From: a bacterium
Lineage (GTDB): Bacteria; RBG-13-61-14; DATKZS01
Reading direction: 5' to 3'
Assembly: GCA_035527835.1 (NCBI GenBank)
Contig: DATKZS010000109.1
Coordinates: 819 to 64,818 of the forward strand
DNA length: 64,000 nt
Below the pieces are notes generated by a model. That model ran no database searches. It saw nothing but the letters and a program-made list of their open reading frames with translations, and was not told the origin of the DNA. A program made the translations under genes and the position numbers. The stretch's first letter is position 1. The number at the start of each line of letters is the position of its first letter. Shown here in pieces: positions 1,977-54,435 of the stretch.

Positions 1977-2290
1977 TTTCAAACCACAAACCTCAAACCC
2001 CAAACCTCAAACCTCTTCTCCCCTTGGTGTCTTGGTGGTTTTCTTTCTCTTCTCTCTTCTTCCCCTCTTCTCAATTACCTTCATACCCTTGGTGTCTTGG
2101 TGGTTCTCTTCTTCTTCTCTTCTCTTCTCCCCTCTTCCCCGCCCTTATACCAACATCCATTGCAAACGCAAGCAGATATTATCGGTAAAATTTACCTGTC
2201 GGGGTGCGACGTTTTTACATATTATAGGGGGGCAATTCGGGGTTTGAGGTTTGGGGTTTGTGGTCTGTGGTTGAACAGGGGAGAGGAGGA
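1977..2290. repeat. inverted pair of heptanucleotide tracts, (CAAACCY)n and its reverse complement (GGGTTTG-like), flanking a CT-rich core plus an AT-rich core
   Basis: Sequence caaacctcaaaccccaaacctcaaacc at 1981-2012 is mirrored by gggtttgaggtttggggtttgtgg at 2239-2262. Between them lie two copies of ccttggtgtcttggtggtt (about 2024 and 2090). Confidence 0.7.
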
Positions 2291-2619
2291 GAAAAAAGTG
2301 TATAGGCACGCTCAACAAGGGCCTCGAAAGCGGTTATTTGGGTGCGACGTTTCGTGGCCTGATTTGTGGGACAGAGTGGCCCGGGTTTCAGGCCGCGGGT
2401 GGCCCGGACGGTGGGACGCGGGAGGCCGGAGATTGGGCCAGCCGTGGTCCAGTTCAGGGTCTTCGCGGCCTGGGCCCTGGGCCTCAAAATTCAGGCCACG
2501 GGCGGCCAACTCCCGGATTTCTTTGGACCCCGGGTCTAAAACGGGGGAAAATTTTCCGGGAAACGGCCTCTGCGGCCTAAATTTGACGACAGTGGTCAAG
2601 GCCCAAATTTTTTTCTTCC

Positions 2620-2850
2620 ATTTGCTTCCCCGTGTTCCCCGTTCCTCGTTCCGAGTTCCCCTCTCCCCGTTCCCCGCTCGTCGCCCCTCGCTCCCCGCTC
2701 CTCGCTCCTGGCTTCCTGCTTCTTGCCCCTGGCTTCTTGCTTCTGGATTCTTGCTTCTGGCTTCTGGATTCTTGCTTCTTGCTTCTGGATTCTTGCTTCT
2801 GGCCCCTGGCTGCTGGCTACTGGCTACGGGCTTCTATCGGCTTCGCGGAT
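2620..2850. repeat. long degenerate heptanucleotide tandem tract (CGTTCCC / CGCTCCT / TGCTTCT / GGATTCT units)
   Basis: Period-7 units can be read across about 230 bp. The region is non-coding, and the overlapping ORFs 1731..2873 and 2632..2913 are low-complexity artefacts. Confidence 0.7.
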
Positions 2851-2888: not shown

Positions 2889-4586
2889 ATGGCGGAGAAC
2901 AAGATGGAGCTGATGAAGATTGCGGACAGCGGGGACCTGGCGGAGGTTCCGTTCGGTCGGGTGTTTTACCGTTTTTGCCGGGAGAAGCGGACCGGTGTTC
3001 TGGATGTTCGGGACAAGCCGGCGGCCGGGGGCGGCAGGATTTTGAAGCGGGTGATGATGGTTGAGGGCTCGCGGTTCGCGGCTCAGGGCGGGAGCGCGAT
3101 GGAGACGCTGCCGCAGATCCTGTTGGACCAGGGCAAGCTGACCCCGGATGGTTTTGAGGCGCTGAAGGCGGAGTTGAAGGGCGATTGGGGGAAGATGGAG
3201 CAGAAGGTGCTGGCGGGCGCGGTGGTGCCGGGGTCGGAGATCCCGGAGCTTCTGGCGCTGCAGGCGGAACTGAAGGTGCGGTCGCTGCTGTGCCTGTTCC
3301 GCGGGCATTACGATTTCAAGCCCCAGCCGGTTTCGCAGGTTATGGGCAAGCACATCCTGATGCCGTTCGGGGTTGAAAAGGCTCTGTTGGAGGGCGCGAT
3401 CGAGCACTACCCGGCGGCGCGGATCAATAAGGAGTTTCCGGGGATCGAGAAGAAGAATTTCCGGCCGGCGGGTGATTTCAAGGAACGGATCGGCGGGTTC
3501 GGGCTGCCGCCGAGCGTTCTGCGGTGGCTGCGGTCGTCGCCGGAGTCGTTTTCGTGGGACGGGTTGTTGCAGGGCGCGCCGGTGGGTGCGGAGCAGGCGG
3601 CGGTGATGCTGCTGGCGCTTTATTTCACCGAGGTGATCGTTCTGGCGCGGGCGGACGATGATTTTCCGGTGGGGCGGGCATATCTGGAGGCGCGGGAGGA
3701 AGCGGTTTCCCGGGCGGAACAGAAAGAGGAGAAGCGGGCGGCCGCCGAGCTCAAGTCCGACGAGACCAAGGCGGAGAAGGAGGAGAAGAAGGCGGAGAAG
3801 TCGGCGGAGCCGAAGCTCCCGATCGAGGAGATGCTGGACAAGGAGATGAGCGACGCGGAGACGCTCAAGGAGATCGAGCGGCTGCTGACGACGGCGCACA
3901 ATACCAAGGGCACGTATTTCGATTTGCTGGGGCTGAAGGAGAGCACCCCGACCTCGAAGATCAAGCAGGTTTATTTCAAGTTCGCCAAGAAGTTCCACCC
4001 GGACGCGAACCCGGAGCTGTTCAAGGGCGAGGTCAAGGATCGGGTGGAGGAGTTGTTCACGAAGCTCTCCGAGGCCTACAACACGCTCGCGGACGGAGAG
4101 TCGCGGCAGCAGTACGCGAACTCGCTGAAGAGCCAGGTCTCGAAGCAGGACATGGAGAAGGGGCAGCGGGCGATCGAGGCGGAGATGGATTTCCAGAAGG
4201 CGGAGGTCCTGCTCAAGCGCTCGGCGTGGGCCGAGGCCGCGGGGCTGTTGGAGCGCGCGGCGCAGCTCCAGGCGGACGAGCCGGAGTACGGGCTGTACCT
4301 GGCGTGGGCGCGCTACAAGCAGAAGGGGCCGTCGGAGGCCGCGCGGGCGCAGAAGGCGATCAAGGCGGCGCTGGACAAGCGGCCCAAGGTGGCGGACGGC
4401 TATTATTACCTGGGCCAGTTGGCCAAGGACGAGGGGAACCTGGACAAGGCCGAGGAATATCTCAGCAAGGCCTCGCAAATGAAGCCGCACGATATTGACA
4501 TCAAGCGCGAGCTCCAGCTCATGCAGCGGCGCCGGGTCAAGGAGGCCACCACCAAAAAGGGCGGGCTGTTCGGGAAGAAGAAGTGA
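2889..4586 (+). CDS. DnaJ (J-domain) protein with DUF4388-like N-terminus and C-terminal TPR repeats
   Basis: J-domain signature YFDLLGL...KKFHPDANPE with the HPD tripeptide is present. The C-terminus has a TPR-like AxxAxxYY..G...G pattern, and there is a charged Lys/Glu-rich linker. Confidence 0.7.
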   Translation: MAENKMELMKIADSGDLAEVPFGRVFYRFCREKRTGVLDVRDKPAAGGGRILKRVMMVEGSRFAAQGGSAMETLPQILLDQGKLTPDGFEALKAELKGDWGKMEQKVLAGAVVPGSEIPELLALQAELKVRSLLCLFRGHYDFKPQPVSQVMGKHILMPFGVEKALLEGAIEHYPAARINKEFPGIEKKNFRPAGDFKERIGGFGLPPSVLRWLRSSPESFSWDGLLQGAPVGAEQAAVMLLALYFTEVIVLARADDDFPVGRAYLEAREEAVSRAEQKEEKRAAAELKSDETKAEKEEKKAEKSAEPKLPIEEMLDKEMSDAETLKEIERLLTTAHNTKGTYFDLLGLKESTPTSKIKQVYFKFAKKFHPDANPELFKGEVKDRVEELFTKLSEAYNTLADGESRQQYANSLKSQVSKQDMEKGQRAIEAEMDFQKAEVLLKRSAWAEAAGLLERAAQLQADEPEYGLYLAWARYKQKGPSEAARAQKAIKAALDKRPKVADGYYYLGQLAKDEGNLDKAEEYLSKASQMKPHDIDIKRELQLMQRRRVKEATTKKGGLFGKKK

Positions 4587-4644
4587 AGAAATTATGAATT
4601 AATAATTAAGAGTTAAAAATGGCCGGATAAATAAACGCGATTTT

Positions 4645-4693
4645 TCATGACTCATCAATTTTTACTTTTTACTTTTTACCTTTTACTTTTGTC
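4645..4693. repeat. heptanucleotide tract (TTTTACY)n abutting the PHP gene start
   Basis: Sequence tttttactttttactttttaccttttacttttg lies immediately before the ATG at 4694. No Shine-Dalgarno is present. Confidence 0.6.
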
Positions 4694-5245
4694 ATGAAGT
4701 GCGCATTACACGTCCATACCAACCTCTCCGACGCGGCCCTCACCCCGGATGAAGTGTTGAAGATTTACGCGGACCTCGGGTTCGGGATGGTGGCCATCAC
4801 GGACCACGAGTTCCTGCTCCGCGACAACTACGTCGCGCTGGTGCAGGGGGCCAGGCACCGCGGGATGGCGGTGGCGGCGGGGGTCGAGGTGGACTGGGAG
4901 CCGTGGAACTACCACCACCTGCTGCGCATCTCCGGCACGCGCGAGACGCTGCACGTGCTGGCGCACCCCGGCGCGTATTACCTGGAAATCGAGGAGGTGA
5001 ACGCGCGGCTCGGGTCAACGCCTTTTGCCGTGGACGCGGTCGAGGTGACGCACCGCGGCTTTTATACTCCGAAATACGACACGGACCTGATCGCCGCGCC
5101 CAGGATCGCCACCGACGACGCGCACGAGCCCCACGAGTGCGGCCGCGCCTGGATCGAAATGGCCGACACCCGCGACCTGGACCGGGCGCTCCGGGCCGTG
5201 AAGGCCGGGGACTTCGAGGTGAGGTTCTTCAGAAATAGTAGATAG
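4694..5245 (+). CDS. PHP-domain metal-dependent phosphoesterase
   Basis: The N-terminal HVHTNLSD motif and the later ITDHE motif are typical of the PHP family. Confidence 0.7.
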   Translation: MKCALHVHTNLSDAALTPDEVLKIYADLGFGMVAITDHEFLLRDNYVALVQGARHRGMAVAAGVEVDWEPWNYHHLLRISGTRETLHVLAHPGAYYLEIEEVNARLGSTPFAVDAVEVTHRGFYTPKYDTDLIAAPRIATDDAHEPHECGRAWIEMADTRDLDRALRAVKAGDFEVRFFRNSR

Positions 5246-5294
5246 TAGCAAGTAGCCGGTAGCCAGGGAAATGCTTCAATCTGTTTGGCTCTCA

Positions 5295-5398
5295 TTCTTC
5301 AGCCCTGAAAGGGCCAAAATAAGATAGCCCAGGGTTGGCCGTCCTCGGCCTACCCTGGGATATCGGAGCCCATAATATCCTTTTCAGCCCTGAAAGGG
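5295..5398. repeat. two copies of a roughly 30-bp direct repeat, each carrying the hairpin AGCCCTGAAAGGGC
   Basis: Sequence tcttcagccctgaaagggccaaaataagat at about 5295 matches ttttcagccctgaaagggcgaaataaaaat at about 5368. Both lie downstream of the PHP gene. Confidence 0.6.
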
Positions 5399-5576
5399 CG
5401 AAATAAAAATGGTCCCTTGCGCGCGTTATTCGCTGAATAATCATCTTTGATTCGGATACACCACAATAGAGAAGAAAGGCAAGGATGAAGTACAGAGGCC
5501 GATGCAATTAGATTTCATCCTTCACCCTTCATACTTTTTTTACTTTCGCCCCGCCATCCACCGGCGGTGACATATC

Positions 5577-6275: not shown

Positions 6276-9200
6276 ATGGCCGATGAAAAGGCTATACTTG
6301 AAGCGCTGCTGACCTTCGCTGACACCGTAACGGCCAAGATGACCACTCTGACCCCGGGTGAGCCGGAAGATCAATTGCGCGCCCCTTTTGAAACATTTAT
6401 TCTCGAAGTCGGACGTGTCCTTTTCCGTAAAATCATCTGCACAGGAGAAACCAGGCTGCCGGGCCGGATTGGGAAGCCGGATTACGCCGTCCATGCAGAT
6501 GATCTATTAGCCGGCTACGTGGAAATGAAAGCCCCCGGCGTCGGCGCGGACCCCGGCCGCTTCTCCGGCCACAACCGCGATCAATGGAAACGCTTCAAGG
6601 CGATCCCCAATCTCATCTACTGCGATGGAAATGAATGGGGATTGTTCCGCAACGGCGAAAAGATCGGCTCAATCATCCGTCTATCAGGTGACGTGGCCGC
6701 CGACGGCAAGAAGGCCGTGACCTCGGAGAACGCCCGCTCCATAACAAAACTCCTGACCGACTTTCTTTCCTGGAAGCCCATCATTCCCACGACATCAAAG
6801 GGCGAAATAGACTTCAAGGGGTTCGCCGACCTGCTGGCCCCGTTGTGCCGGATGCTGCGCGATGACGTGACCGACGCGCTCAAGGACCCGCAATCGCCCC
6901 TCGTCCAACTGGCCAAAGACTGGCGCCAGCTCCTCTTCCCCGATGCCCCGGATGAGCAGTTCGCCGACGCCTACGCTCAGACCGTTACCTTCGCTCTGCT
7001 GCTGGCCCGCAGCGAGGGCGCCGATCCGCTCACCCTCGACAATGCCGAGAAAGCCTTATCCGCGGAACACGGTCTGCTCTCCCGCGCACTCCAGGTCTTG
7101 ACCGATCCCGGAGCTCAATCTGAGATCTCCGCCTCGCTCAATCTGATCATGCGCGTCGTCGCCGAAGTCCCGCCCCTCTCGCTGTCCGGCCCTCAAGACC
7201 CCTGGCTTTACTTCTATGAATATTTTCTCGCCGCCTACGACCCCAAACTGCGCAAGGACGCCGGGGCCTACTACACTCCAGTCGAGGTCGTCCGCGCCCA
7301 GGTCCGGCTTATTGACGACCTGCTGGTGAACCGGCTGGGCAAGCCGCTGGGCTTCGTTGATTCCGGAGTCGTCACGCTCGACCCCGCCGCCGGCACCGGC
7401 ACCTATCTGCTCGGCGTCATCGGGCACGCCCTCGGCCGGATCGAGGCAGAACAGGGCGCCGGCGCCGTAGCGGGGATGGCCACCGCGCTGGCCGCCAACC
7501 TCTACGGCTTCGAGCTCATGGTCGGACCTTACGCCGTAACCGAATTGCGAGTCAGCCGCGCACTAAAGAACAAAGGCGCCAGCTTGCCCCCTGAAGGCAC
7601 GCGCGTTTATTTGACCGACACGCTGGAAAGCCCAAACGCCAAGCCGTCAGAACTGCCTTTCTACCTCAAGCCCATCGCAGAGCAGCACGCCAAGGCGCTC
7701 AAAGTCAAGATCAATGTCCCGGTCATCGTCTGCCTGGGCAATCCGCCCTACGACCGCCATGAAGCCGCCACCGCCGAAAACCAGGCCCGCACCGGGGGGT
7801 GGGTCCGATGGGGAGACGACGGCAAGGGTTATCGCCTGAAGGATGACAGGGAAAAAGATGATGAATTTGAAGACGCTATCTTCCATGACTTTCTCGAATC
7901 CGCCAAAGTGGCAGGCCACGGCGTCCACGTTAAAAACCTCTACAACCTCTATGTCTATTTTTGGCGATGGGCACTATGGAAGGTTTTCGAGCACTCAACA
8001 GCATCCGGGCCGGGCGTCGTCAGCTTTATCAGCGCTTCAAGCTACCTCGACGGCGACGCCTTCTGCGGGATGCGCGAATACCTGCGCCGCGTCTGCGATG
8101 AAATCTGGATACTAGACCTCGGCGGCGAAGGGCGCGGCACGCGCAAGAGTGATAACGTATTCGCCATCCAAACGCCCGTCGCCATCGGCATCGCCGTCCG
8201 CTCGGGCAAGGCTAAAAAGGAAAAGCCCGCCAAGGTCCATTACTCCAGCATTGAAGGCGCACGAGATGATAAGCTCGCGAAGCTGGACGCCATTAAAGAC
8301 TTCAAGAGCTTGAAGTGGCTGGACTGCCCCGAAGGTTGGCAGACCCCTTTCCGCCCGGCGGGCAAAGGCAAATATTTCGAATGGCCGCTCCTGACCGATC
8401 TCATGCCGTGGCAACATTCGGGAGCTCAGTTAAAGCGAACCTGGCCTATTTCTCATGAGCAGGAGACGCTTAAGAAAAGATGGCGGGCGCTTCTTGGTTC
8501 AAAGGATATGAAACAAGCTTTTCGCGAAACCAGGGACCGAAAAGTCGTATCTCCTTGTCCCCAGGCACCGCCCAATGGCAATGGTGAAAAAGCATTGAAG
8601 TCCTTGCCCCAAGACTCAGAAGCGCCTCCCATTGTGCGTTATGCTTATCGCTCATTCGATCGCCAATGGGTCTTTGCCGACAACCGTTTAGGGGATTTCC
8701 TGCGCCCGGTACTGTGGGGGATACATGGCGAACGGCAGGTGTATCTGACAAGCCTGTTGACTAAATTCCTCGGTGCAGGTCCGGCGCTCACGACTTGCGC
8801 AGCTATTCCCGACTTGGACCATTTCTCGGCACGCGGGGCTAAGGATGTCGTCCCTCTCTACCGCACCGCAGACGCATCCGAGGCGAATGTCCTGCCCGGC
8901 CTGCTCGATCTGCTGGGCAAAGCGTACAGGCGCGTGGTGAAGCCGGAAGACTTCCTGGCCTACATCTATGGCGCGTTGGCGCAGCCGGCCTTCACTGGAC
9001 GTTTTCGAAACGAATTGGAAACGCGCGAGCTGCGCGTGCCGGTCACGAAGAATGCCGCGCTTTTCGAGAAGGTGCGCGACATCGGCTCGCGATTACTGTG
9101 GCTGCACACCTATGGCGAGCGGTTTGTGCCGAAGGGTGAAAAGCGCGGCCAGGTCCCGCGCGGCTCTGCTAAGTGCACCAAGGCCGTACCTGGCGGTCAG

Positions 9201-9617
9201 GAAGGCTATCCGGAGTCTTTCGAGTATGACGATGCAACGCGGACGCTCCGTGTCGGCGCGGGCGAGTTCCGGCCCGTGGCGCCCGAAGTATTCGCTTTTG
9301 AGGTTTCTGGGCTCAAGGTGGTGCAGTCCTGGCTCAAATACCGAATGAAGAAAGGCGCGGGCAAGAAGTCCTCGCCTCTGGACGACATCCGGCCGGAGCG
9401 TTGGACCAGTCAATTCACCACCGAACTTCTAGAGCTGCTCTGGGTGTTGGAAGCGACGGTGGAAGGTTATCCCGAGCAGGCGCGGCTTTTGGATGCCGTG
9501 ATTAAAGGTCCCTGCTTCACCGCCCATGAGCTGCCCCCCGTCCCGGCCGCCGCCCGCAAACCTCCTTCCTCGCGGGAACTCGATCTTCTTGACCAGATGG
9601 AGCCGGATGAGGGTTGA
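6276..9617 (+). CDS. type IIL (MmeI-family) restriction-modification enzyme: N-terminal PD-(D/E)xK nuclease, N6-adenine methyltransferase, and C-terminal TRD
   Basis: The N-terminus APFETFILEV ... DYAV ... YVEMKAPG parallels the MmeI D-x(n)-EMK nuclease motif. Methyltransferase motif I LDPAAGTGTYLLG and motif IV NPPY (N6A class) are present. A long C-terminal region follows. Confidence 0.65.
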   Translation: MADEKAILEALLTFADTVTAKMTTLTPGEPEDQLRAPFETFILEVGRVLFRKIICTGETRLPGRIGKPDYAVHADDLLAGYVEMKAPGVGADPGRFSGHNRDQWKRFKAIPNLIYCDGNEWGLFRNGEKIGSIIRLSGDVAADGKKAVTSENARSITKLLTDFLSWKPIIPTTSKGEIDFKGFADLLAPLCRMLRDDVTDALKDPQSPLVQLAKDWRQLLFPDAPDEQFADAYAQTVTFALLLARSEGADPLTLDNAEKALSAEHGLLSRALQVLTDPGAQSEISASLNLIMRVVAEVPPLSLSGPQDPWLYFYEYFLAAYDPKLRKDAGAYYTPVEVVRAQVRLIDDLLVNRLGKPLGFVDSGVVTLDPAAGTGTYLLGVIGHALGRIEAEQGAGAVAGMATALAANLYGFELMVGPYAVTELRVSRALKNKGASLPPEGTRVYLTDTLESPNAKPSELPFYLKPIAEQHAKALKVKINVPVIVCLGNPPYDRHEAATAENQARTGGWVRWGDDGKGYRLKDDREKDDEFEDAIFHDFLESAKVAGHGVHVKNLYNLYVYFWRWALWKVFEHSTASGPGVVSFISASSYLDGDAFCGMREYLRRVCDEIWILDLGGEGRGTRKSDNVFAIQTPVAIGIAVRSGKAKKEKPAKVHYSSIEGARDDKLAKLDAIKDFKSLKWLDCPEGWQTPFRPAGKGKYFEWPLLTDLMPWQHSGAQLKRTWPISHEQETLKKRWRALLGSKDMKQAFRETRDRKVVSPCPQAPPNGNGEKALKSLPQDSEAPPIVRYAYRSFDRQWVFADNRLGDFLRPVLWGIHGERQVYLTSLLTKFLGAGPALTTCAAIPDLDHFSARGAKDVVPLYRTADASEANVLPGLLDLLGKAYRRVVKPEDFLAYIYGALAQPAFTGRFRNELETRELRVPVTKNAALFEKVRDIGSRLLWLHTYGERFVPKGEKRGQVPRGSAKCTKAVPGGQEGYPESFEYDDATRTLRVGAGEFRPVAPEVFAFEVSGLKVVQSWLKYRMKKGAGKKSSPLDDIRPERWTSQFTTELLELLWVLEATVEGYPEQARLLDAVIKGPCFTAHELPPVPAAARKPPSSRELDLLDQMEPDEG

Positions 9618-11836: not shown

Positions 11837-11887
11837 GGAGGGCTTGAGGCTTGGGGCTTGGGGCTGCGCCGGAGAGGGGAGTAAGAC
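11837..11887. repeat. heptanucleotide tract (GGCTTGR)n between the histidine kinase and response regulator genes
   Basis: Sequence gggcttgaggcttggggcttggggctg. Confidence 0.55.
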
Positions 11888-12352: not shown

Positions 12353-12451
12353 GGGAGGCACAGGGCTTGGGGCTTGAGGCTTGGGGCTTGAGGATAGAGA
12401 CAAGGCATCTTGGCCTCACCCCTCACGCCTCACGCCTCAAGCCTCAGTCCA
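12353..12451. repeat. inverted heptanucleotide-repeat pair, (GGCTTGR)n and (CCTCACG)n, between convergent genes; likely a bidirectional terminator
   Basis: Sequence gggcttggggcttgaggcttggggcttgagg is followed by cctcacccctcacgcctcacgcctcaagcctcag. The two are imperfect reverse complements of each other. Confidence 0.6.
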
Positions 12452-16226: not shown

Positions 16227-17159
16227 ATGGGTAAGGCAAATAAGCAAAAGCCCGATAGCAAGGCAAAGGCTGGATGTTTTAGGTATCCTCTAATTGTTAT
16301 TATTGCCTTCTTTATCTATGCCCCTCCTGTTTGTGTGAGCAAGTCTCAAAACCATATATTCGTAGATGGTCCTTCTGATCTTTATGATATCCATAGCCTG
16401 GCTCGGAGAGGCAAGACCCCTCTTGTCATTATCTACACCCTATTTAGTCCCAAATTGGTGAATTCGATTGATGATGGTAAGACCCCTCTCCATCTAGCAG
16501 CGGCAAACGGCCATACTTTCATGGTTCACTATTTGGTTTGGATAAAGGCTGACGTAAACAATAGGGGTCGAACCACGCCGCTAGAAGAAGCTCTCATCAG
16601 CGCCGCCAATATTAATCGCGCCAACCGCATTGCAAAGTATCTTATTGATCATGGATCTAAAATAAATCCTAAATCGGGTAGAGCGCCATTAAGCGTTGCT
16701 GTTTCCTATTGTAATACAGAAATGGCAAGCTATCTAATTGATAAAGGGGCGGATGTCAATTATGGCTCTCCGATTCTGCTCGCTACTCGTTGTGATGGTA
16801 ACATGTTAAAACTACTTGTGGATCATGGAGCAAATATTAACGCACGTTATAGGGATGGGAGGACTTTCCTGCACCAATTGGTTCTTGAAATGCCGAGTCC
16901 TCGATATGAACTCTTTCCTATACTTGCCGAAAATGGGATTGATCTCAATGCACAGGACGAACAAGGAAATACCTTTGTTCATTTGGCAGTTAATAAGGGA
17001 GATATAAAATTTATAGAACTTGCCATTGAGTATGGCGCTGCTGTGAATATCAATAATAATGAAGGAAAATCTCCTCTTGACCTAGCATTGGAAAAACCCA
17101 AGTATAAGATAACTGAGATTATAATTAACCAGCTGATAAATGAAGCTTCCATAAAATAG
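16227..17159 (+). CDS. ankyrin-repeat protein with N-terminal signal/TM segment (low-GC island)
   Basis: Ankyrin motifs GKTPLHLAAANGH...LV are repeated several times. The region is AT-rich relative to its flanks, and a GGAGGG Shine-Dalgarno precedes the start. Confidence 0.8.
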   Translation: MGKANKQKPDSKAKAGCFRYPLIVIIAFFIYAPPVCVSKSQNHIFVDGPSDLYDIHSLARRGKTPLVIIYTLFSPKLVNSIDDGKTPLHLAAANGHTFMVHYLVWIKADVNNRGRTTPLEEALISAANINRANRIAKYLIDHGSKINPKSGRAPLSVAVSYCNTEMASYLIDKGADVNYGSPILLATRCDGNMLKLLVDHGANINARYRDGRTFLHQLVLEMPSPRYELFPILAENGIDLNAQDEQGNTFVHLAVNKGDIKFIELAIEYGAAVNINNNEGKSPLDLALEKPKYKITEIIINQLINEASIK

Positions 17160-17231: not shown

Positions 17232-17392
17232 TCATCGCCCGGTCAATTGCTCCATTTTTTCGGGATAGCGGGTGCCTTGGACGGTGATCTGGGAGGCGGC
17301 GGTTTGGATGTCGCGGAGGTCGGCGGAGGTGAGCTCGACCTTGACCGCTCCGATGTTCTCGTCCAGGCGCTCGAGTTTGGGGCGTGACGGGT
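17232..17392 (-). pseudogene. 3' remnant of an aldo/keto reductase gene
   Basis: Minus-strand translation gives ...PKLERLDENIGAVKVELTSADLRDIQTAASQITVQGTRYPEKMEQLTGR* — the typical AKR C-terminus (the preceding 5' codons run into the arm of the hairpin element at 17389). The 5' three-quarters of the gene is missing and its place is taken by the hairpin element at 17389. Confidence 0.55.
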
Positions 17393-17475
17393 CAGTGCTT
17401 CAGTTTTCAGTTAATCTGGGGAATGTTCATGACCTGGGGAGACTCGCGATTAACTGAAAACTGAAGCACTGACCC
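17389..17475. repeat. long inverted-repeat hairpin element (copy 1 of 2)
   Basis: Sequence GGGTCAGTGCTTCAGTTTTCAGTTAAT ... ATTAACTGAAAACTGAAGCACTGACCC forms a roughly 27-bp stem. A near-identical architecture is found at 46717-46803. Confidence 0.75.
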
Positions 17476-18711: not shown

Positions 18712-19170
18712 ATGGAAAACATAGAGCTGCTGAAAAAGGTTCGGATCTTCCAGGGCCTTTCGGATGACGAGCTCAAGAAGTTCGGGCCCATCGTCGGGGA
18801 GGAGCAATTTCCGCCCCAGGCGGTGATCATCGAGGAGGGCATGGAGGGCCGGGCGCTGTTCATCATCCGGCGGGGCACGGTCACGGTGACCAAGATTGAC
18901 GGCGAGGTGGAGACGGAGCTGGTGAAGCTGGTGGCGGGCGAGGAATTCGGGGAAATGAGCCTGGTCGAGGACACGGTGACGTCGGCGCGGGTCACGGCCT
19001 ATAACGACGTGGAGTGCCTGATCATCAACCGGGAACCATTCATGCAACTGCTGAACAATGACCTAAGCCTCTCCAACAAGGTGTTCCGGAACTTTACCAA
19101 GGTCCTCTCCGAGCGGCTCCGCAACACGTCGTCCGAGCTGGTCACCTGGAAGCCCGACATCGCCTTCTAG
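18712..19170 (+). CDS. cyclic-nucleotide-binding domain protein (no HTH)
   Basis: A cNMP-binding beta-roll with GEEFGEMSLVED and the RSA motif region is present. An AAGGAGG Shine-Dalgarno precedes the start. Confidence 0.75.
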   Translation: MENIELLKKVRIFQGLSDDELKKFGPIVGEEQFPPQAVIIEEGMEGRALFIIRRGTVTVTKIDGEVETELVKLVAGEEFGEMSLVEDTVTSARVTAYNDVECLIINREPFMQLLNNDLSLSNKVFRNFTKVLSERLRNTSSELVTWKPDIAF

Positions 19171-19206
19171 AAGCATCGCCCAATGACATTGGTCCAGAGA
19201 TATTAG

Positions 19207-19283
19207 GACAGGATTAACAGGATTTACAGGATGTCCGGAATACGCCTTCTCTTTTGTATCCTGTAAATCCTGTTAATCCTGTC
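19207..19283 (+). terminator. long hairpin downstream of the cNMP-binding gene
   Basis: Arm gacaggattaacaggatttacaggat pairs with atcctgtaaatcctgttaatcctgtc and is followed by aaaattttt. Confidence 0.5.
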
Positions 19284-19331
19284 AAAATTTTTCACGATTT
19301 CTTGGCGCCCCAAAGCGGCATGAGCAAGTGT

Positions 19332-19357
19332 AAAAAAAACCCGGGACGGTTCCCGGG
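19332..19357 (-). terminator. rho-independent terminator of tRNA-Val
   Basis: On the minus strand, CCCGGGAaccgTCCCGGG is followed by T8, 14 nt after the tRNA 3' end. Confidence 0.55.
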
Positions 19358-19370
19358 TTTTCTGTTTTCA

Positions 19371-19487: not shown

Positions 19488-19537
19488 GCAGCGTAGGGCG
19501 TATGTCGCAGGTCGTATGGCGTAGGTCGCAGGTCAGG

Positions 19538-20584: not shown

Positions 20585-20700
20585 GATTAATTCCTGTTAT
20601 TATTGGGTTGAGACCAATTCATTCTTCCTTCATCCTTCAAACTTGATTCTTGATTCTTTCCCTATCTACTACCTACTGACTACTATCTACTACACCAACC
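20585..20700. repeat. heptanucleotide tandem tract (TCTTGAT / CTAYCTA units) running into the 3' end of the phosphoglycerate mutase gene
   Basis: Sequence ttcttgattcttgattctttccctatctactacctactgactactatctactacacc. The last 9-10 codons of the mutase ORF and its stop codon are encoded by this tract. Confidence 0.7.
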
Positions 20701-27564: not shown

Positions 27565-27619
27565 GACTTCCTCCTTTCCGGGCTATCAGTACATTTAAGT
27601 CTTGGAAACCGTATGATGG

Positions 27620-33998: not shown

Positions 33999-34028
33999 AG
34001 GCCGCCCCCGGACCGAAGCACGGAAGAT

Positions 34029-34105: not shown

Positions 34106-34136
34106 TAATTCTTATTGTCTCGTCCTTCCAGGAAAG

Positions 34137-41459: not shown

Positions 41460-42386
41460 ATGCCAAAAAAACGAGTTGAACTGGTAACTCATATATTCAA
41501 AGGCGCTCGTTTCGAGGATCACGGCATTGATATAGACGTCCTTGAGGAGTTGATTGTATATAAAAAAATCTTGGTTGAAACAGCCAAGGAACTTTGGCGA
41601 CGTCATAACCCTGATCGTCAAAGATTGCCGAAAAATTTTGAAGATTCTCTCTGCATCAAGTTTTATGAGCTTCGGGAAGGCTCAACTGGCGTTCCGATGA
41701 TGCGGGAAATTGAATATGATAACGGCGAACTCCCTCTTCCACGGCCTGAGGATGAACTGGATGAGGCTGTGAAGGTTGTTGCGGAAGCGGAAGATGCGGC
41801 CAATAATGATTACCCGCTCCCGGATAATTTTCCTAAAAATATCATTCCACTGTTCGATAAATATGGAGACAGTTTGAGAGAAGACGAGAGTTTTGAGCAC
41901 CAGCCGGCAAACTCCGAACGACGTATCATTTATAATAAGAAGACTCGTGAACGGTTGCATAGTTGGTCAGACGGTCAATACGAAGACATGATTGAGCTGA
42001 GCGGGGAAGTCCGAGCCGCAGACCTTGACCAAGGAAATTTCACCATTCGTCTGGATGACGGGACCAAAGTCGCCGGAAAATTTAATCCGAGCCAGGAAGA
42101 AGAGGTAACGCTCGCACTCCGCGAACATGAGAAGAAGAGGCTAAGCGTGAAAGGTAGAGGAGGGTTTTCCTCGCCCGAAGGCAAGCTGAGACGTATTATC
42201 GCCGTGGAGCAAATGATAATTCATCAAGGTAATGGCGACGTTTTTGATGCCAGCGCCCGACCCATTTGGGAAGTCGTTTCCGAGATTGGGGCCTCCGTTC
42301 CCGAAGAGGAATGGGCCAAGGTTCCCACCGATCTTTCGAAAAACCTTGATCATTACTTGTACGGCGCACCCAAGGATGCGAAATGA
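41460..42386 (+). CDS. hypothetical acidic protein (308 aa), putative partner of the downstream PIN toxin (low-GC island)
   Basis: AT-rich codon usage unlike its flanks. The stop overlaps the PIN gene start (ATGA). The C-terminus ends ...KVPTDLSKNLDHYLYGAPKDAK. Confidence 0.5.
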   Translation: MPKKRVELVTHIFKGARFEDHGIDIDVLEELIVYKKILVETAKELWRRHNPDRQRLPKNFEDSLCIKFYELREGSTGVPMMREIEYDNGELPLPRPEDELDEAVKVVAEAEDAANNDYPLPDNFPKNIIPLFDKYGDSLREDESFEHQPANSERRIIYNKKTRERLHSWSDGQYEDMIELSGEVRAADLDQGNFTIRLDDGTKVAGKFNPSQEEEVTLALREHEKKRLSVKGRGGFSSPEGKLRRIIAVEQMIIHQGNGDVFDASARPIWEVVSEIGASVPEEEWAKVPTDLSKNLDHYLYGAPKDAK

Positions 42387-42793
42387 AAAAAATTTTCGCC
42401 GATTCCTCTTATTGGATTGCTCTTCTTAATCCTCGAGATGAACATCATGATAAGGCAAAAATAGTTTCTTCTTCTCTCGGACAGATACATATCGTCACCA
42501 GCGACATGGTTTTAACGGAATTCTTAAATTCCTTTTCCACTAGAGGAACTTTATTGCGAAAAAGGGCAGCAGAAACCGCCAAGGGAATCTTGAACAATCC
42601 CAATGTGAAAGTTGTTGCTCAAACCAGGGAGCAATTCAATGAAGCCCTCTCGCTATTTTCCGACCGAGAGGACAAGGAATGGGGCCTTACTGACTGTTCC
42701 TCCATTAAGATCTGCATTGATAACAAGATCAATGAGGTGTTAACCGCCGACCATCATTTTCAACAAGCCGGCTTGATCGCGTTGTTGTTATAG
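42383..42793 (+). CDS. PIN-domain ribonuclease (VapC-like toxin)
   Basis: The N-terminal FADSSYWIAL motif (first acidic residue) and the later acidic residues TSD and LTDC are present. The length is about 136 aa. Confidence 0.75.
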   Translation: MKKIFADSSYWIALLNPRDEHHDKAKIVSSSLGQIHIVTSDMVLTEFLNSFSTRGTLLRKRAAETAKGILNNPNVKVVAQTREQFNEALSLFSDREDKEWGLTDCSSIKICIDNKINEVLTADHHFQQAGLIALLL

Positions 42794-44134: not shown

Positions 44135-44251
44135 GCCGGGCCGGTTGTGCAGGGCGGGATGCGGGCGCCGGCGCCTGGAATTATAAATGCTGCAATGCCT
44201 GCGCCATTACCATAGCCTAATCCATTGCCCGATTCAATGGCGATCAGGATT

Positions 44252-44725
44252 TCAGGCTTGGCCGGCCGGGCGGTGACGGCGCAGGAAAAGGGCGGCCAGG
44301 GCGAGCGCGGTGATGATGACCGCGAACGCGGGGCTGGAATATTGGATGTAGCCCCGCGCGAAGTCCGTGCGGCGGAGCGGATAAAAAAGCAGCACGGGCC
44401 AGTCGCAGAGCACGTCGAGGCCGAGGGGGACGAGCAGGCAGAACACGGCGAGCAAGTAAAGCGTCATAAATCTGGAGCCCTTGCCCCACTTCCATCCCGC
44501 CCACGCGGCCGGCGCCGCGATCACGGGGAGCGCGAACAGCGTGTGGGTGAAGAGGCGGTGATAATGGTAATACAGGCCGGCGCCGCCGAGGTAAAGGGCG
44601 GCGTCGAGATCGGGCAGGGCCGAGGCGATGACTGCGGCGGCCAGCATCGCCTTCAGGTCCCGGCCGCCGCGGGCCGCGGCCGCTCCCAGGAACATCCCGG
44701 TCATGGAGTGGGTCACGAGGTCCAT
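44252..44725 (-). CDS. DUF457 membrane-bound metal-dependent hydrolase (YdjM-like)
   Basis: The start MDLVTHSMTGMFLG and His-rich TM segments are present. Confidence 0.7.
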   Translation of the reverse strand: MDLVTHSMTGMFLGAAAARGGRDLKAMLAAAVIASALPDLDAALYLGGAGLYYHYHRLFTHTLFALPVIAAPAAWAGWKWGKGSRFMTLYLLAVFCLLVPLGLDVLCDWPVLLFYPLRRTDFARGYIQYSSPAFAVIITALALAALFLRRHRPAGQA

Positions 44726-44734
44726 GGGCGCTCC

Positions 44735-45547
44735 CTAAAAAATCATGGCGCTGAAGAAGAGGCCGATGACTCCATGGATCACGGCGGGCGCCATGATGCC
44801 TCCGGTGCGCTCGTAGATCAGGCCCAGGATGAAGCCCTCGAGTCCGGTGACAAGGGCCTCGCCGATATTGGGACAAAAATCCCGGAGCCGGTCCACGAAG
44901 GGATTGTAATAGGCGAAGCCGTGGCCCAGGCCGAAGATGAGGGAGGCGATAATCAGCCCCCACCCGAAGCCGACGCCCGCGATCTTGAACGGCCGCCCCA
45001 GCGCCCGGTTCAGCCGGCCCTGGATGTAGCCTCGGAACAGCACCTCCTCTCCCACGCCGCAAAACACCACGGTAAAGACCACGGTATCGAGCCAGCCGAT
45101 CAGGTTGGTATCATGCCGGGTGAGGCCCAACCGCTCGCCGAAATGAAAGGGCGGCAGCAGGAGCGCGAGCCTTTTGCCTTCGTACAGATGCGGGACCAGG
45201 GAGAACAGGATCCAGATCGCGGTGAGCTCGGCCGCGGCCACCCGGGAGATGCGCCTTGCCTCCGGGTCGCACAGTTGCGCGCGGCCGAGCCCGAGGTCCG
45301 AGAGGGGACGGCGCATCAGAGCGGTGAGGGCGAGGGGAAAAGCCAGCATCATCAGGTGCGCGAAATAATCCCAGCCCACCAGGTAAAGCTGCACGGTCCC
45401 GAACCAGGTGGTCTCCAGGTACTTGATGAAAAGCAGGAACGCGGAAAACAGCGCCATGACCTCGGCCAGGGCCAATGCTCCCGAGTCCCGCACATCGCTC
45501 ACCTTGAGTCCCGCCGCGATCCTTGTGCTTTCCGCGGCATTTTTCAT
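44735..45547 (-). CDS. CPBP-family intramembrane metalloprotease (CAAX protease/Abi)
   Basis: The EEVLFRGY motif and the FGLGHG motif lie within a polytopic membrane protein. Confidence 0.75.
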   Translation of the reverse strand: MKNAAESTRIAAGLKVSDVRDSGALALAEVMALFSAFLLFIKYLETTWFGTVQLYLVGWDYFAHLMMLAFPLALTALMRRPLSDLGLGRAQLCDPEARRISRVAAAELTAIWILFSLVPHLYEGKRLALLLPPFHFGERLGLTRHDTNLIGWLDTVVFTVVFCGVGEEVLFRGYIQGRLNRALGRPFKIAGVGFGWGLIIASLIFGLGHGFAYYNPFVDRLRDFCPNIGEALVTGLEGFILGLIYERTGGIMAPAVIHGVIGLFFSAMIF

Positions 45548-45551
45548 CTGT

Positions 45552-45620
45552 TCACCCCCAGGTGATGATCATCAGTATCACGATGATGGCCCCCAACAGC
45601 ATAATCAATCTCTCGCTCAT
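45552..45620 (-). CDS. 22-aa hydrophobic peptide ORF immediately upstream of the CPBP protease
   Basis: The ORF encodes MSERLIMLLGAIIVILMIITWG, and its stop lies 4 nt before the protease ATG. It is below the ORF-track size cutoff. This call is speculative. Confidence 0.25.
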   Translation of the reverse strand: MSERLIMLLGAIIVILMIITWG

Positions 45621-45836
45621 GCCCGCCTCCTTTTCATATCCGGCCCTCTTCGCTCATAGGTCATAGCAAGCTCGGTGCCAAGTCCGCGGCCTGGCCGCAA
45701 CCGGCCTATTTCAAAGCGGTTTAATGATTTCAGGAATGGGCCATCGTTTACGGAGGGCATGTAAGCGGTTTCACAGCCCGGCAAGGCAGGGCAGCAATAG
45801 AGAGGCGCGGGAATGGCGTCAGGAGAGTTCGGGCGG

Positions 45837-46716: not shown

Positions 46717-46803
46717 GGGTCAGAGCTTCAGTTTTCAGTTAATGAGAGGATTGCCGAAAGCTGGAGCGATCCCGACATTAACTGAAAACTGAAGCTCTGA
46801 CCC
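46717..46803. repeat. long inverted-repeat hairpin element (copy 2 of 2)
   Basis: Sequence GGGTCAGAGCTTCAGTTTTCAGTTAAT ... ATTAACTGAAAACTGAAGCTCTGACCC. It has compensatory changes relative to the copy at 17389. Confidence 0.75.
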
Positions 46804-46961: not shown

Positions 46962-47012
46962 ACAACCAATCCCTCCGCCTCGACCGGGGCGGGCTTTTTA
47001 TAGGAAACGTGA

Positions 47013-47110
47013 GGATGCCGGAAGCGGAGAGGAGCGAGGAGCGAGGAGCGAGGAACGAGGGAAGCCCCGGCCTCAAGCCTCACGCCGGCCGCCGCACGTC
47101 TCTTCCCTCG
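47013..47110. repeat. inverted heptanucleotide-repeat pair, (GAGGARC)n and its complement
   Basis: Sequence gaggagcgaggagcgaggaacgaggg ... cctcgatcttcgctccccgcccgtcgctcctc. The same unit family occurs as its reverse complement at 2640-2700. Confidence 0.6.
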
Positions 47111-47148
47111 ATCTTCGCTCCCCGCCCGTCGCTCCTCTTTGAGGACTA

Positions 47149-48843: not shown

Positions 48844-48975
48844 GCGGCTTTTGCCCCGCGGCTCTTCATGCCGCGAGGAAGCGCTCTGAGCACGTGAAAA
48901 GGCGCTGGGCGTGATGCCTGCCGGGCCCGTCGCCGGCGCGATTGAAGGGACCTATGGTATTGGTTACAATGCCAG

Positions 48976-52662: not shown

Positions 52663-54389
52663 AGCGGGAGCGCTTTATTCCGGCCATGCTGGCCGCGGTG
52701 ATGGCGGCGGCGTTCCTGGTCAACGCGCCTTCCCTCGGCTACGGCTTTGTTTTCGACGAGCGGTTACTGATCGTTGATAACCCGGTGGTGCACGACCTGG
52801 CGAACGCGGGGCGGATGTTCGGCGAGAAGTTCTGGCCGGGCCCGGCGCGGGGGATTTACTACCGGCCGCTGGTGACGCTCTCTTATGCGGCGGGCTATGC
52901 CGTGGCGGGGGAGACGCCGTGGGTCGAGCACCTGATCAACGCGTTGGCGCACGCGCTGGCCTCGGGGCTCATGTTGCTCCTCCTGGTCCGGCTCACGGGC
53001 AAGGAGCGGGTTGCGGCGCTGGCGGCGATGATCTTCGCGGTGCATCCGGCGCACGTGGAGTCCGTGGTGTGGGTGCCGGGCCGCACCGACGTTTTCGCCG
53101 CGATGTTCATGATGGCGTCCTGGGTCATGCTGCTTCGGGCCCGGGACCGGGGAGACCATGCCGGCCGCGCCGCGCCGTATTCCCTGGCCGCCCTGTTCTA
53201 CCTGGCCGCGCTGTTTTCGAAGGAGATCGCGGTGACGCTGCCGGCGCTCATCGTGGCGCACGATTTTTTCCAGCGCCGATCCGCCATGAGAAAGCGCGTG
53301 TATGAATACGCGGCCCTGGCGCTTATCACCGCGGCGTTCATGGCGTGGCGGACGCACGTGCTCTCGGCGCCCGGCCCGGCGCCGGCGCCCAACGCCCTGG
53401 CCGGGCTCTCCCCGGCCCGCTCCGCGCAGGCGATTATCATGGTCTTCGCCTATGCCCTGAAGCTCCTCGCATTGCCCTGGTTCTGGCGCATTGATTTTGC
53501 CTACGCCGCGAAGATCACCTCGGCGCCGGCGTGGGCCGGAGTCCTGTCCGCCGCCGTGGCCGCGCTCCTGATCGGGGCGGCGGCCGGGTCATGGAGACGG
53601 GGCCCGTCCGCCTCATTTTTTATCGCGGGCTTCTTCATCAGCGTCCTGCCGTTCTCGCAGCTCGTTCCCTTTCCGACGTTGTTCGCCCAAAGATTTTTGT
53701 ATCTGCCGAGCCTGTTCATCTGCGGCCTCGCTGCGTCCATGCTCATTCTTGCCGCGGAGAGGCTGAAGAAGTCCGGAAGCGGGGCCGGAAGCGGGGCCGG
53801 ACGCGTGGCTTTCGCCATCCTGCTGGCGGCCGTATTGCTGGCGCTGGGGCCGCTGTATATCGCGAAGGGACGGGTGTTCAGGAATGACCTGACTTTCTGG
53901 CGGGCCGCGGTGCAACAGGTCCCGGAATTGGCGCTGGCCCACAACAACCTGGGGATCGCCTATCGCGACCGGGGCCTGATGGCCGCGGCCCAGGCGGAAT
54001 ATGAAAAGACCATTGAGCTTGACCCTTCCTATCACGTTGCGCGGATGAACCTGGCCGAGATCGTGATCAAGAACGGAGACCTGGCGCGGGGGATCGCGCT
54101 GCTCGAGCAAGCGGCGGCGGAAGATCCGCAAAACCCGGCGGTCAGGAACAACCTGGGCCTGGCCTATATGAGCGCGGGGCGGGCGGGTGACGCCAGGGTC
54201 CAGTGGGAGGCCGCCCTGGCCCTGGACCCGTCAAATTTCATCGCGCACGTTCAACTCGCCCACTATTACCTGGAGTCGCGGCCGGACCTTGCGGCGGCCC
54301 GGAAGCACCTTGCCGCCGCGCGTGAAATCATGCCCGGCCACCCCCTGGTGCTCGAACTGGAGCGGGAGATCCGGGAGCGGGGACCGTGA
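52659..54389 (+). CDS. TMTC/DUF1736-like GT-C glycosyltransferase with C-terminal TPR repeats
   Basis: A different N-terminal family is present (FAVHPAHVESVVWV motif). TPR repeats are at the C-terminus. A 4-nt start/stop overlap with the upstream gene is present. Confidence 0.6.
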   Translation: MKRERFIPAMLAAVMAAAFLVNAPSLGYGFVFDERLLIVDNPVVHDLANAGRMFGEKFWPGPARGIYYRPLVTLSYAAGYAVAGETPWVEHLINALAHALASGLMLLLLVRLTGKERVAALAAMIFAVHPAHVESVVWVPGRTDVFAAMFMMASWVMLLRARDRGDHAGRAAPYSLAALFYLAALFSKEIAVTLPALIVAHDFFQRRSAMRKRVYEYAALALITAAFMAWRTHVLSAPGPAPAPNALAGLSPARSAQAIIMVFAYALKLLALPWFWRIDFAYAAKITSAPAWAGVLSAAVAALLIGAAAGSWRRGPSASFFIAGFFISVLPFSQLVPFPTLFAQRFLYLPSLFICGLAASMLILAAERLKKSGSGAGSGAGRVAFAILLAAVLLALGPLYIAKGRVFRNDLTFWRAAVQQVPELALAHNNLGIAYRDRGLMAAAQAEYEKTIELDPSYHVARMNLAEIVIKNGDLARGIALLEQAAAEDPQNPAVRNNLGLAYMSAGRAGDARVQWEAALALDPSNFIAHVQLAHYYLESRPDLAAARKHLAAAREIMPGHPLVLELEREIRERGP

Positions 54390-54435
54390 GGGGCCAGAGG
54401 CTTGGGGCTTGGGGCTTGAGGCTCGGGGCGCGGGA
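54390..54435. repeat. heptanucleotide tract (GGCTTGR)n
   Basis: Sequence ggccagaggcttggggcttggggcttgaggctcgggg. It belongs to the same family as the tracts at 11840 and 12360. Confidence 0.6.

Follow-up and report, generated by a model that had tools for sequence, protein, structure and literature searches.

A 64,000-nucleotide (nt) stretch of DNA from a bacterium of the GTDB lineage RBG-13-61-14 (DATKZS01), referred to here as the window (assembly GCA_035527835.1, contig DATKZS010000109.1, positions 819 to 64,818 of the forward strand), carries tandem arrays of short units, mostly heptanucleotides, in the spacers between its genes. These heptamer arrays are real, statistically overwhelming and no artefact. 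Most comprise three to six units of 7 nt (sometimes 8-9 nt), one reaches 30 units, and about half of all arrays are arms of inverted pairs. They are probably slippage-driven, non-coding simple-sequence arrays, some copies of which have also been dispersed; any regulatory side effects would be local at most. An earlier description of the same DNA, prepared without database searches (the sequence-only reading), had drawn attention to these tracts and had likened them to the STRR repeats of cyanobacteria; its claims are considered below alongside the results that bear on them.

Period, placement and pairing

The analysis comprised the 64-kb window and about 9 kb of flank (extending approximately 8.3 kb to the right and 0.8 kb to the left), amounting to about 73 kb of one genome. 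Arrays were called using Tandem Repeats Finder (TRF), and 46 likely genes were used to separate coding from intergenic DNA. Every tract that the sequence-only reading had placed at gene boundaries was recovered by TRF to within about 10 nt. The genome-wide use it had also proposed could be followed only across the window and its flank, the latter contributing one further inverted pair.

To compare periods on equal terms, a uniform tract criterion was applied to all of them (at least three units and at least 85% self-match, with runs of 1-3-nt units left out). Period 7 yielded 19 tracts in the window, 18 of them intergenic, and was clearly preferred over periods 6 and 8, with 4 tracts and 1 tract, respectively; periods 5, 9, 10, 11 and 12 gave 4, 2, 0, 0 and 1. 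Period 4 yielded 22 tracts, of which only 3 were intergenic, and shuffled sequences produced a similar number. When the intergenic DNA was shuffled 200 times, the mean number of period-7 tracts was 0.01, compared with 17 observed, and lags of 7, 14, 21 and 28 were local maxima of intergenic self-match. As a control, 890 kb of unrelated sequence was assembled from genome loci and from loci retrieved by a metagenome scan with the histidine kinase of the window (at most 37% full-length identity, and thus of no use for orthology). It contained 23 period-7 tracts, a density of 0.026 per kb compared with 0.30 per kb in the window (an approximately 11-fold difference), and period 7 was not the leading period within it.

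Array sequence accounts for about 1.2 kb of 7.8 kb of intergenic DNA and is distributed over 12 of about 40 spacers, with TRF scores ranging from 30 to 124 (Table 1). The arrays commonly span an entire spacer, from stop codon to next start, and their contexts are mixed, as some follow stop codons, some precede start codons and others are found in divergent spacers or ahead of a promoter-like site. Where arrays follow a gene they begin 4-27 nt past its stop codon, a distance that narrows to 4-10 nt for all GGCTTGR arrays. Overlap with genes is confined to the last three to six codons. The claim that one array supplies coding sequence was borne out, as positions 20662-20693 encode the last six codons and the stop codon of a phosphoglycerate mutase on the minus strand. 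Both this array and the one at 5235-5264 cross a stop codon, and in each the sense strand of the ending gene carries TAG in every unit, placing stops in all three frames.

Ten inverted pairs were identified, with 83-94% complementarity in the seven whose arms are compared in Table 1, in agreement with the earlier observation that several tracts form imperfect inverted pairs. The purine-rich arm lies 5' on the plus strand in nine of the ten. Predicted RNA folds of the spacers containing inverted pairs reach z-scores of -4.7 to -6.2 relative to shuffled sequences; because the arms are inverted arrays, such low scores are not in themselves evidence of selection. The CGCCAAGA/TCTTGGCG arrays of period 8-9 at three loci, the period-9 pair at 19197-19293 and the period-7/21 tract at 19491-19534 were absent from the earlier list.

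Table 1. Tandem arrays and inverted pairs of the window and its flank, with coordinates, strand and supporting observations.
Feature	Position	Strand	Basis and remarks
(TCAAACC)5.3 array, left arm of a long-range inverted pair	1979-2016	+	TRF; inverted-repeat search. Arms 1982-2013 / 2241-2272, 94% complementary, 227 nt apart; fold of 1960-2290, z = -6.2
(GGTTTGT)4.6 array (unit GGTTTGN), right arm, complement of 1979-2016	2239-2272	+	TRF; inverted-repeat search
Long degenerate array, 30 units, ~215 nt	2620-2835	+	TRF (2704-2835: 18.9 copies, 0% indels); unit parse. Unpaired
Element filling the DnaJ-to-PHP spacer: degenerate (TTAAKAA) arm 4589-4620, spacer, (TTTTTAC)4.6 at about 4655-4690	4589-4690	+	TRF call of (TTTTTAC)4.6 at 4659-4690. 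Arms no longer complementary; fold z = +0.7
(AGTAGNN)4 array over the PHP gene stop codon	5235-5264	+	Unpaired
Small hairpin: GGATGAA-type arm and (TTCAYCC)3 arm, ~40 nt upstream of ATG 5577	5477-5535	+	(TTCAYCC) tract at 5514-5535 weak: 3 units, 79% self-match
(GGCTTGR)3.7 single array	11840-11868	+	4 nt past histidine-kinase stop, upstream of response-regulator start. Unpaired
Inverted pair (GGCTTGR)4 / (GCCTCAC)4.9 between convergent genes, imperfect hairpin	12362-12447	+	Component arrays (GGCTTGR) 12362-12393 and (GCCTCAC)4.9 12413-12446 (TRF). Arms 12368-12393 / 12421-12446, 85% complementary, 27 nt apart; fold -58.1 kcal, z = -5.6; no T-run after
Period-9 inverted pair (ACAGGATTA)2.8 / (ATCCTGTAA)2.8, also written ACAGGATTA / TAATCCTGT	19197-19293	+	3' region of gene 18712-19170. 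Arms 19197-19232 / 19258-19293, 89% complementary, 25 nt apart
Period 7/21 array (GTCGCAG / CGTAGGG), ending 4 nt from the stop of minus-strand gene 19538-20584	19491-19534	+	TRF period 21, 2.0 copies, 90% matches. Unpaired
Three abutting short arrays (TTCATYC)3, (CTTGATT)2.4, (CTACCTA)4.6	20618-20693	+	(TTCAYCC)-type copy at 20618-20639; (CTACCTA)4.6 at 20662-20693, 76% matches (TRF). Unpaired
Period-8 inverted pair (ACGCMAAG) / (TCTTGGCR), CGCCAAGA family	27625-27705	+	Arms 27613-27648 / 27686-27721, 83% complementary, 37 nt apart
Period 8-9 inverted pair (CGCCAAGA) / (TCTTGGCG), divergent spacer	28709-28809	+	Arms 28709-28746 / 28772-28809, 84% complementary, 25 nt apart; spacer fold z = -4.7
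Period 8-9 inverted pair, CGCCAAGA / TCTTGGCG family, between convergent genes	34025-34105	+	Arms 34032-34062 / 34066-34096, 87% complementary, 3 nt apart; fold z = -5.7
140-nt element between tRNA-Gly terminator and hflX start: (GAGGAGC)4.6 arm 47026-47062; loop with CCTCAAG/CCTCACG units; degenerate (GCTCCNC) arm 47102-47138	47003-47143	+	TRF call of (GAGGAGC)4.6 at 47029-47060. Arms 47028-47064 / 47102-47138, 86% complementary, 37 nt apart; fold z = -6.1
(GGCTTGG)4.4 array, 7 nt past a stop codon, between convergent genes	54396-54429	+	Unpaired
Further inverted pair, outside the window	L098 17361-17456		

The longest array (2620-2835) is placed upstream of a promoter-like site and of the start of the gene for a protein with DnaJ and TPR domains (DnaJ-TPR). 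Its 7-nt register is unbroken, with zero indels, and a super-period of 21 nt is superimposed on it. The unit drifts stepwise along the array, from GTTCCCC through GCTCCTC and GCTTCTG to GCTACTG. Downstream of the same gene, the (TTTTTAC) array ends 3 nt before the ATG at 4694, which has no Shine-Dalgarno (SD) sequence, as the sequence-only reading had claimed.

Units, assemblies and relatives

At least ten different units occur in the window, most of them not G-rich. Exact 11-mers common to different spacers were used to define families. The GGCTTGR family is represented at 11837-11887, 12353-12451 and 54390-54470 and in the loop of the 140-nt element at 47003-47143. The GAGGAGC/GCTCCTC family links 2620-2710 with 47026-47140; units GCTCCTC and GCTCCCC lie within 2680-2710, which bears out the proposed complement near 2640 of the (GAGGARC) tract at 47020. 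The GGATGAA/TTCATCC family occurs at 5477-5535 and 20618-20639, with an 11-mer common to 5477-5535 and 20585-20672, and the CGCCAAGA family at 27625-27705, 28709-28809 and 34025-34105. Two of the CGCCAAGA loci, 28709-28809 and 34015-34045, have a 30-nt stretch in common, with irregular 9-8-9 spacing. Slippage acting locally and independently at each site would hardly produce such a stretch, which suggests copying. The presence of unit families at several loci implies that some copies have also been dispersed, and the same families extend to relatives of the window (introduced below), with (TTCATCC)6 in L103, (GGATGAA)/(TTCATMC) in L108 and (CGCTCCT) at the end of the L108 contig. A single mutational cloud embracing all unit families would imply common ancestry. 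Across thirteen unit consensus sequences, nearest-neighbour distances were not below those of random heptamers (p = 0.2-0.4), although one of four tests gave p = 0.008. Given this diversity of units, the constant feature appears to be the period and not the motif, which suggests a process tied to the period and not to any particular motif.

Contigs from at least five other samples or assemblies (JGI, ENA, Logan and NCBI) are 100% identical to the window across the short arrays. The chance that the tracts are assembly or scaffolding artefacts is negligible. Short-read contigs do break inside arrays (L114 starts at 2771, L003 and L004 end at 12391, and L100 starts at 54400), and the long array differs in length between assemblies; however, assemblies of different samples carry the same short arrays base for base, and related arrays stand at orthologous sites in relatives. 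The filler explanation, which the sequence-only reading had named as a way in which its interpretation might fall, therefore fails for the short arrays. By coordinate arithmetic, a 94-kb contig (ERZ27256828:k141_2464124) ends at about 2334, near the 2239-2272 array. The arrays thus fragment short-read assemblies of the window's organism.

Only the 2620-2835 array, 1 of 16, varies in length; the short arrays are invariant across four to five assemblies. Relative to the window, L111 and L112, which come from two sources, carry an additional 21 nt (GCTTCTG GATTCTT GCTTCTT), and L113 lacks 42 nt. Over the remaining 9-14 kb, these three contigs differ from the window by only one or two single-nucleotide polymorphisms, the length change being located inside the array alone. 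The indels are whole units, in multiples of the 21-nt super-period.

The host belongs to a little-known lineage. The HflX and DnaJ-TPR proteins of the window are identical to HUT53834.1 and HUT53799.1, both annotated as 'MAG TPA: ... [bacterium]'. Among named organisms, the closest homologues share 53-59% identity and belong to Deltaproteobacteria/Thermodesulfobacteriota, Nitrospirota, Acidobacteria, Armatimonadetes and Planctomycetes. No cyanobacterium was found among the named protein homologues of the window and its GC content is about 64%, both of which agree with the earlier statement that the host is not cyanobacterial. In a scan of a genome collection, the closest species-representative genome showed 70% identity in phosphoglycerate mutase and carried no arrays. 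The DnaJ/TPR/PatA_N (DUF4388) protein encoded at 2889-4586 (+) has about 22 full-length homologues in a collection of 5.8 billion proteins, exclusively from uncultured samples, which indicates that the lineage is small and poorly sampled. A small PHP-domain gene follows the DnaJ-TPR gene in all homologues, making the two a lineage-restricted gene pair.

Relatives were identified through HflX (L102, L103 and L104, with 89%, 75% and 73% identity, respectively) and through DnaJ-TPR; L108 and L110 are relatives at 70% and 54%. Relatives at 71-89% HflX identity contain zero to one array in 6-22 kb. The 140-nt element in front of hflX is missing at the same site in L102, L103 and L104, all of which keep the tRNA-Gly(CCC), its terminator and the hflX start; judged from this comparison, the element is a gain of the window lineage since its divergence from a close relative. 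Other spacers show additional small insertions relative to L102 and L108. The spacer from the PHP gene to the next gene measures 331 nt in the window and 38 nt in L108, that from the cyclase gene to hflX 505 nt against 297 nt in L102, and that from hflX to the next gene 132 nt against 0 nt in L102.

The DnaJ-to-PHP spacer contains an array pair in both the window and L108, aligned in register, and none in L110. All units of an array have changed alike between the two, with CTTCATA in L108 against CTTTTTA in the window and GGATGAA against TTAAKAA, and the window has one unit more. The arms are complementary in L108 but not in the window. This concerted unit change without complementarity indicates that the two arrays were homogenised separately and that pairing was not preserved at this locus. 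The TAG array at the PHP stop codon consists of four units in the window and three in L108. These comparisons show rapid turnover of the arrays through gain, concerted unit change and whole-unit indels.

Origin and possible effects

We favour a model in which replication slippage or unequal exchange would create, expand, contract and homogenise arrays in intergenic DNA, while purifying selection would confine their frame-breaking period to non-coding DNA. Because a 7-nt step breaks the reading frame, arrays would survive only between genes or over the last few codons. The inverted pairs would be elements capable of forming hairpins or cruciforms. Since the arrays fill spacers, they land in 3' or 5' untranslated regions or ahead of promoters, and if they influence expression at all, they probably do so locally and secondarily, without a function common to them all. 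Polymerase slippage is the cause put forward in the literature for the heptamer excess, and a length of 7 nt is suggested there to match the piece of DNA that the polymerase holds (Mrazek et al. 2007, as cited in PMC4679880 and PMC4692102). Slippage as the engine, the reason for period 7 and the absence of a common function are what we infer from the observations above.

Several points weigh against this interpretation. Slippage alone does not account for the inverted pairing of about half of the arrays, nor for the 5' position of the purine-rich arm. The irregular 30-nt stretch of the CGCCAAGA copies and the narrow placement of the GGCTTGR arrays behind stop codons suggest copying, targeted insertion or selection over purely local birth. 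Short-read assemblies (k = 141) are the source of the length differences in the 2620-2835 array, and assembly collapse could explain part of them, although two independent assemblies (L111 and L112) agree on the +21-nt allele. Moreover, the data cover only about 73 kb of one genome.

As the inverted pairs, the arm-order bias and the shared CGCCAAGA stretch are left unexplained, a mobile component retains weight, although we consider it unlikely that the arrays are mobile elements outright. Under such a scheme they would be small palindromes, resembling repetitive extragenic palindromes (REPs), bacterial interspersed mosaic elements (BIMEs) or miniature inverted-repeat transposable elements (MITEs), copied to new intergenic sites by an enzyme encoded elsewhere and reshaped later by slippage. 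The clean 140-nt insertion relative to three relatives would fit, as would the small spacer insertions relative to L102 and L108, the unit families recurring at several loci and in L103 and L108, and the CGCCAAGA copies; an unrelated REP-like palindrome present twice in the window also indicates that this genome does spread small palindromes. Yet no convincing target-site duplication or conserved termini were found at the hflX insertion, and no transposase or gene resembling a REP-associated tyrosine transposase (RAYT) among the window proteins. Many arrays are single arms, unit sequences vary widely between loci, and the DnaJ-PHP arms changed without keeping their complementarity. A bolder proposal, which we regard as improbable, is that of undescribed self-propagating hairpin elements with arms of tandem 7-9-mers, which an enzyme would insert precisely into the interval separating a stop codon or terminator from the following start and which would then serve as multivalent RNA- or DNA-binding platforms that tune the expression of flanking genes; if true, the proposal would account for the paired heptamer arrays of Xanthomonas as well. 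About as unlikely as outright mobile elements is a primary role as cis-regulatory RNA or DNA elements, that is, as multivalent binding sites or structures that set the translation, mRNA stability or transcription of a neighbouring gene. Arrays adjoin start codons of genes without an SD sequence (2889, 4694 and 5577), whereas most other genes have one; the pyrimidine-rich arm usually lies beside the start, the purine-rich arm contains SD-like GGAG/GAGG, and an array stands in the same spacer in the 70% relative L108. Precedents include the altered reporter expression that follows deletion of heptamer repeats in Nostoc (bioRxiv 10.1101/2022.06.06.494920) and the positional argument made by MacGregor for the TAACTGA repeats of Beggiatoaceae (PMC4679880). 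Against a regulatory role, the arrays share no common position relative to genes, orthologous arrays differ in unit and have lost hairpin potential in one case (DnaJ-PHP), and close relatives with the same genes lack them. In addition, no Rfam family matched any array, the two tRNAs being the only hits, and ten or more different units would need many binding specificities.

The proposal that the inverted pairs act as transcription terminators, or as hairpins stabilising the 3' ends of convergent genes, is more doubtful still. Hairpins of REP type are known to stabilise 3' ends, the arrays start shortly after stop codons, and predicted hairpin energies are -58 to -66 kcal/mol (z = -5.6 and -5.7). 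Array elements occupy four of six convergent spacers, but against 8 of 34 other spacers this enrichment at convergent gene ends, which the sequence-only reading had suggested checking, is only marginal (Fisher p = 0.055). On inspection of their tails, the array hairpins lack U-rich sequence, with no U-tract after those at 12362-12447 and L098 17361-17456, and a scan with a terminator consensus flagged none of the strong array hairpins, only two weak sites that touch an array element (34087-34106 and 54462-54481). The same scan does flag canonical terminators, a GC hairpin followed by a T-run, after both tRNAs (19336-19361 and 46974-46993), and the pair at 19197-19293 lies upstream of the first of these as a separate element. 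The pairs at 28709-28809 and 47026-47140 are in divergent spacers, and a terminator would make no sense in divergent or promoter-upstream sites. A role as canonical intrinsic terminators was therefore rejected, and the terminator-hairpin interpretation of the sequence-only reading is not supported. It is very unlikely that the arrays are phase-variable contingency loci, in which copy number would switch the expression of an adjacent gene. The long array upstream of DnaJ-TPR does exist in three length states across near-identical assemblies, but it lies upstream of the promoter-like site and not between promoter elements; all short arrays are invariant, imperfect units slow slippage, and the neighbours are housekeeping or regulatory genes instead of surface or restriction genes. 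Least plausible among these functional proposals is an action of the G-rich arrays through G-quadruplexes, as put forward for Xanthomonas and Nostoc. GGCTTGR arrays have GGGG runs every 7 or 14 nt and there is a precedent (PMC4692102), yet most unit families are not G-rich. This candidate was rejected after a scan for four runs of at least three G with loops of 1-7 nt, which located 13 motifs in the window (G-rich strand, 9; C-rich strand, 4), none of them inside an array.

Neighbouring features and known repeat systems

The REP-like palindrome occurs at 17389-17475 and 46717-46803. Its 28-nt arms (GGGTCAGWGCTTCAGTTTTCAGTTAAT) are conserved, its loops of about 30 nt are unrelated, and the copy at 46717-46803 is missing from L102; the arm had no match in a scan of viral contigs. 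A small hairpin motif, TTCAGCCCTGAAAGGGC with an A-rich tail, is repeated in direct orientation at 5285-5310 and 5375-5400 in the PHP-downstream spacer (331 nt, compared with 38 nt in L108). A promoter-like site (TTG...N17...TACAAT, then GCCAG) is conserved upstream of a PMT_2/TPR glycosyltransferase gene at 48942-48970 in the window and at 14425-14445 in L103, where the (TTCATCC)6 array lies just upstream of it.

At the left end, positions 43-1179 (-) encode a 5-hydroxymethyldeoxyuridine (5-hmdU) DNA kinase (PF18723, E = 6e-107), whose gene runs left into L111 1-860 and L097 1564-2007 and adjoins a radical SAM gene; GC is low in this segment (0.44, compared with 0.64). Kinases of this type are part of the pathways by which phages hypermodify thymidine, and it is odd to find one in a bacterial metagenome-assembled genome beside a 1.7-kb repeat-rich non-coding stretch. 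This stretch, without a convincing gene, includes a 115-nt unit present twice in tandem within 1585-1950 (1599-1688 and 1714-1803, 96.7% identical) and small palindromes around AAGCTTGC at 1803-1950. Further along, 6276-9617 (+) encode a Type ISP restriction-modification enzyme of 1113 amino acids (N6_Mtase and Type_ISP_C, E = 7.5e-72); enzymes of this class cut between head-to-head asymmetric sites of 6-7 bp. Low-GC patches at 16227-17159 (an ankyrin-repeat protein, GC about 0.51) and 41460-42793 (a 308-amino-acid protein and a PIN-domain protein, with flat codon-position GC) are probably recent acquisitions. The YdjM-like and CAAX-protease genes (44252-45547) are missing from the 89% relative L102 owing to a 1.6-kb indel (region 44135-45836), so that the GMC oxidoreductase and polyketide-cyclase genes are adjacent there.

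Set against known systems, the arrays are a further case of the heptamer repeats already described in cyanobacteria, Xanthomonas, Beggiatoaceae and Geobacter, the new element being the host lineage; a reading as something outside known biology is unwarranted. The survey of Mrazek, Guo and Shah (2007), as reported in PMC4679880 and PMC4692102, found prokaryotic arrays of 5-11-nt units far beyond chance expectation, with heptamers the commonest and a sporadic phylogenetic distribution. The arrays of the window share the features of these long simple sequence repeats (SSRs): they are longer than chance allows, period 7 predominates, the unit is not a multiple of three and is kept out of coding DNA, and copy number changes by whole units, the last of these as seen in short-read assemblies. 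Hairpin pairing and the lineage of the window are not described in the survey as those two papers present it. The sequence-only reading implied a cyanobacterial speciality, a view that is now outdated: the same two accounts make heptamers the commonest long-SSR class in scattered bacterial lineages.

The closest parallel in architecture is offered by Xanthomonas campestris and X. axonopodis, with about 186 heptamer arrays of the GGGAATC type per genome (Rehm et al. 2015, PMC4692102); 89-93% of these arrays are intergenic, and most belong to inverted pairs that are closely spaced and follow the upstream open reading frame at a distance of about 28 nt (PMC4692102). Shared with the window are a GC-rich non-cyanobacterial host, one or two variable unit positions, typically about four units, inverted pairs close behind an open reading frame, and much variation in length and sequence between close relatives. 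Xanthomonas, however, has one dominant unit with G-quadruplex potential, whereas the window has at least ten units, G-quadruplex motifs outside the arrays, and periods of 8-9 nt as well. GGGAATC, GGGNATC and GGGGAYT (GGGGATT) have zero tandem occurrences in the window.

The STRR family comprises tandem heptanucleotides of heterocystous cyanobacteria (Mazel et al. 1990, cited in PMC4692102). Like these and the heptamers of Nostoc PCC 7120, the arrays of the window occupy many intergenic loci, use several units per genome and often lie near starts or promoters; unlike them, they reside in a non-cyanobacterial host and make inverted pairs much more prominent. STRR1 (CCCCAGT), STRR2 (TTGGTCA) and STRR3 (CAACAGT) show zero tandem occurrences on either strand of the window. 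The label 'STRR-like' thus fits the architecture but not the host or the unit sequence.

The TAACTGA direct repeats of marine Beggiatoaceae, some Cyanobacteria and Bacteroidetes (MacGregor 2015, PMC4679880) are likewise direct heptamer repeats (2-6 copies), mostly intergenic, and many of them lie a few nucleotides upstream of starts without a canonical ribosome-binding site. They consist of a single unit and are inverted in 1 of 170 cases, whereas inverted pairs are frequent here. The window contains seven single copies of TAACTGA and no exact tandem, and TAACTGA-AAACTGA is confined to the palindromes at 17389-17475 and 46717-46803. Geobacter metallireducens also has dispersed tandem-heptamer families in a non-cyanobacterial genome, with GGACCGG in 49 copies and MTYCTGA in 15-16, each of 4-5 tandem heptamers and proposed to be regulatory (Aklujkar et al. 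2009, PMC2700814); these are matched by BLAST at fixed length and sometimes lie inside genes, whereas the arrays of the window have variable copy number, other units and positions outside genes, and the Geobacter units have no tandem occurrence in the window. Resemblance to the REPs and BIMEs of proteobacteria lies in small intergenic palindromes, often past stop codons or between convergent genes, in several families that are gained and lost. However, REP arms are not tandem arrays, and REPs have a conserved sequence and a cognate RAYT transposase, neither of which was seen in the window; here, three families recur at two to four loci and the arms are arrays of variable sequence instead of one conserved palindrome.

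The present case adds a further lineage to the scattered bacteria known to carry heptamer arrays in their intergenic DNA. It also provides comparative snapshots of a gain beside a tRNA, of concerted unit replacement without pairing and of whole-unit length change between near-clonal populations. Two questions, the reason for a period of 7 and the reason for inverted pairing, date from 1990 for cyanobacteria and from 2007 for bacteria generally, and the graded series of array-poor relatives makes this lineage a good comparative system in which to address both.

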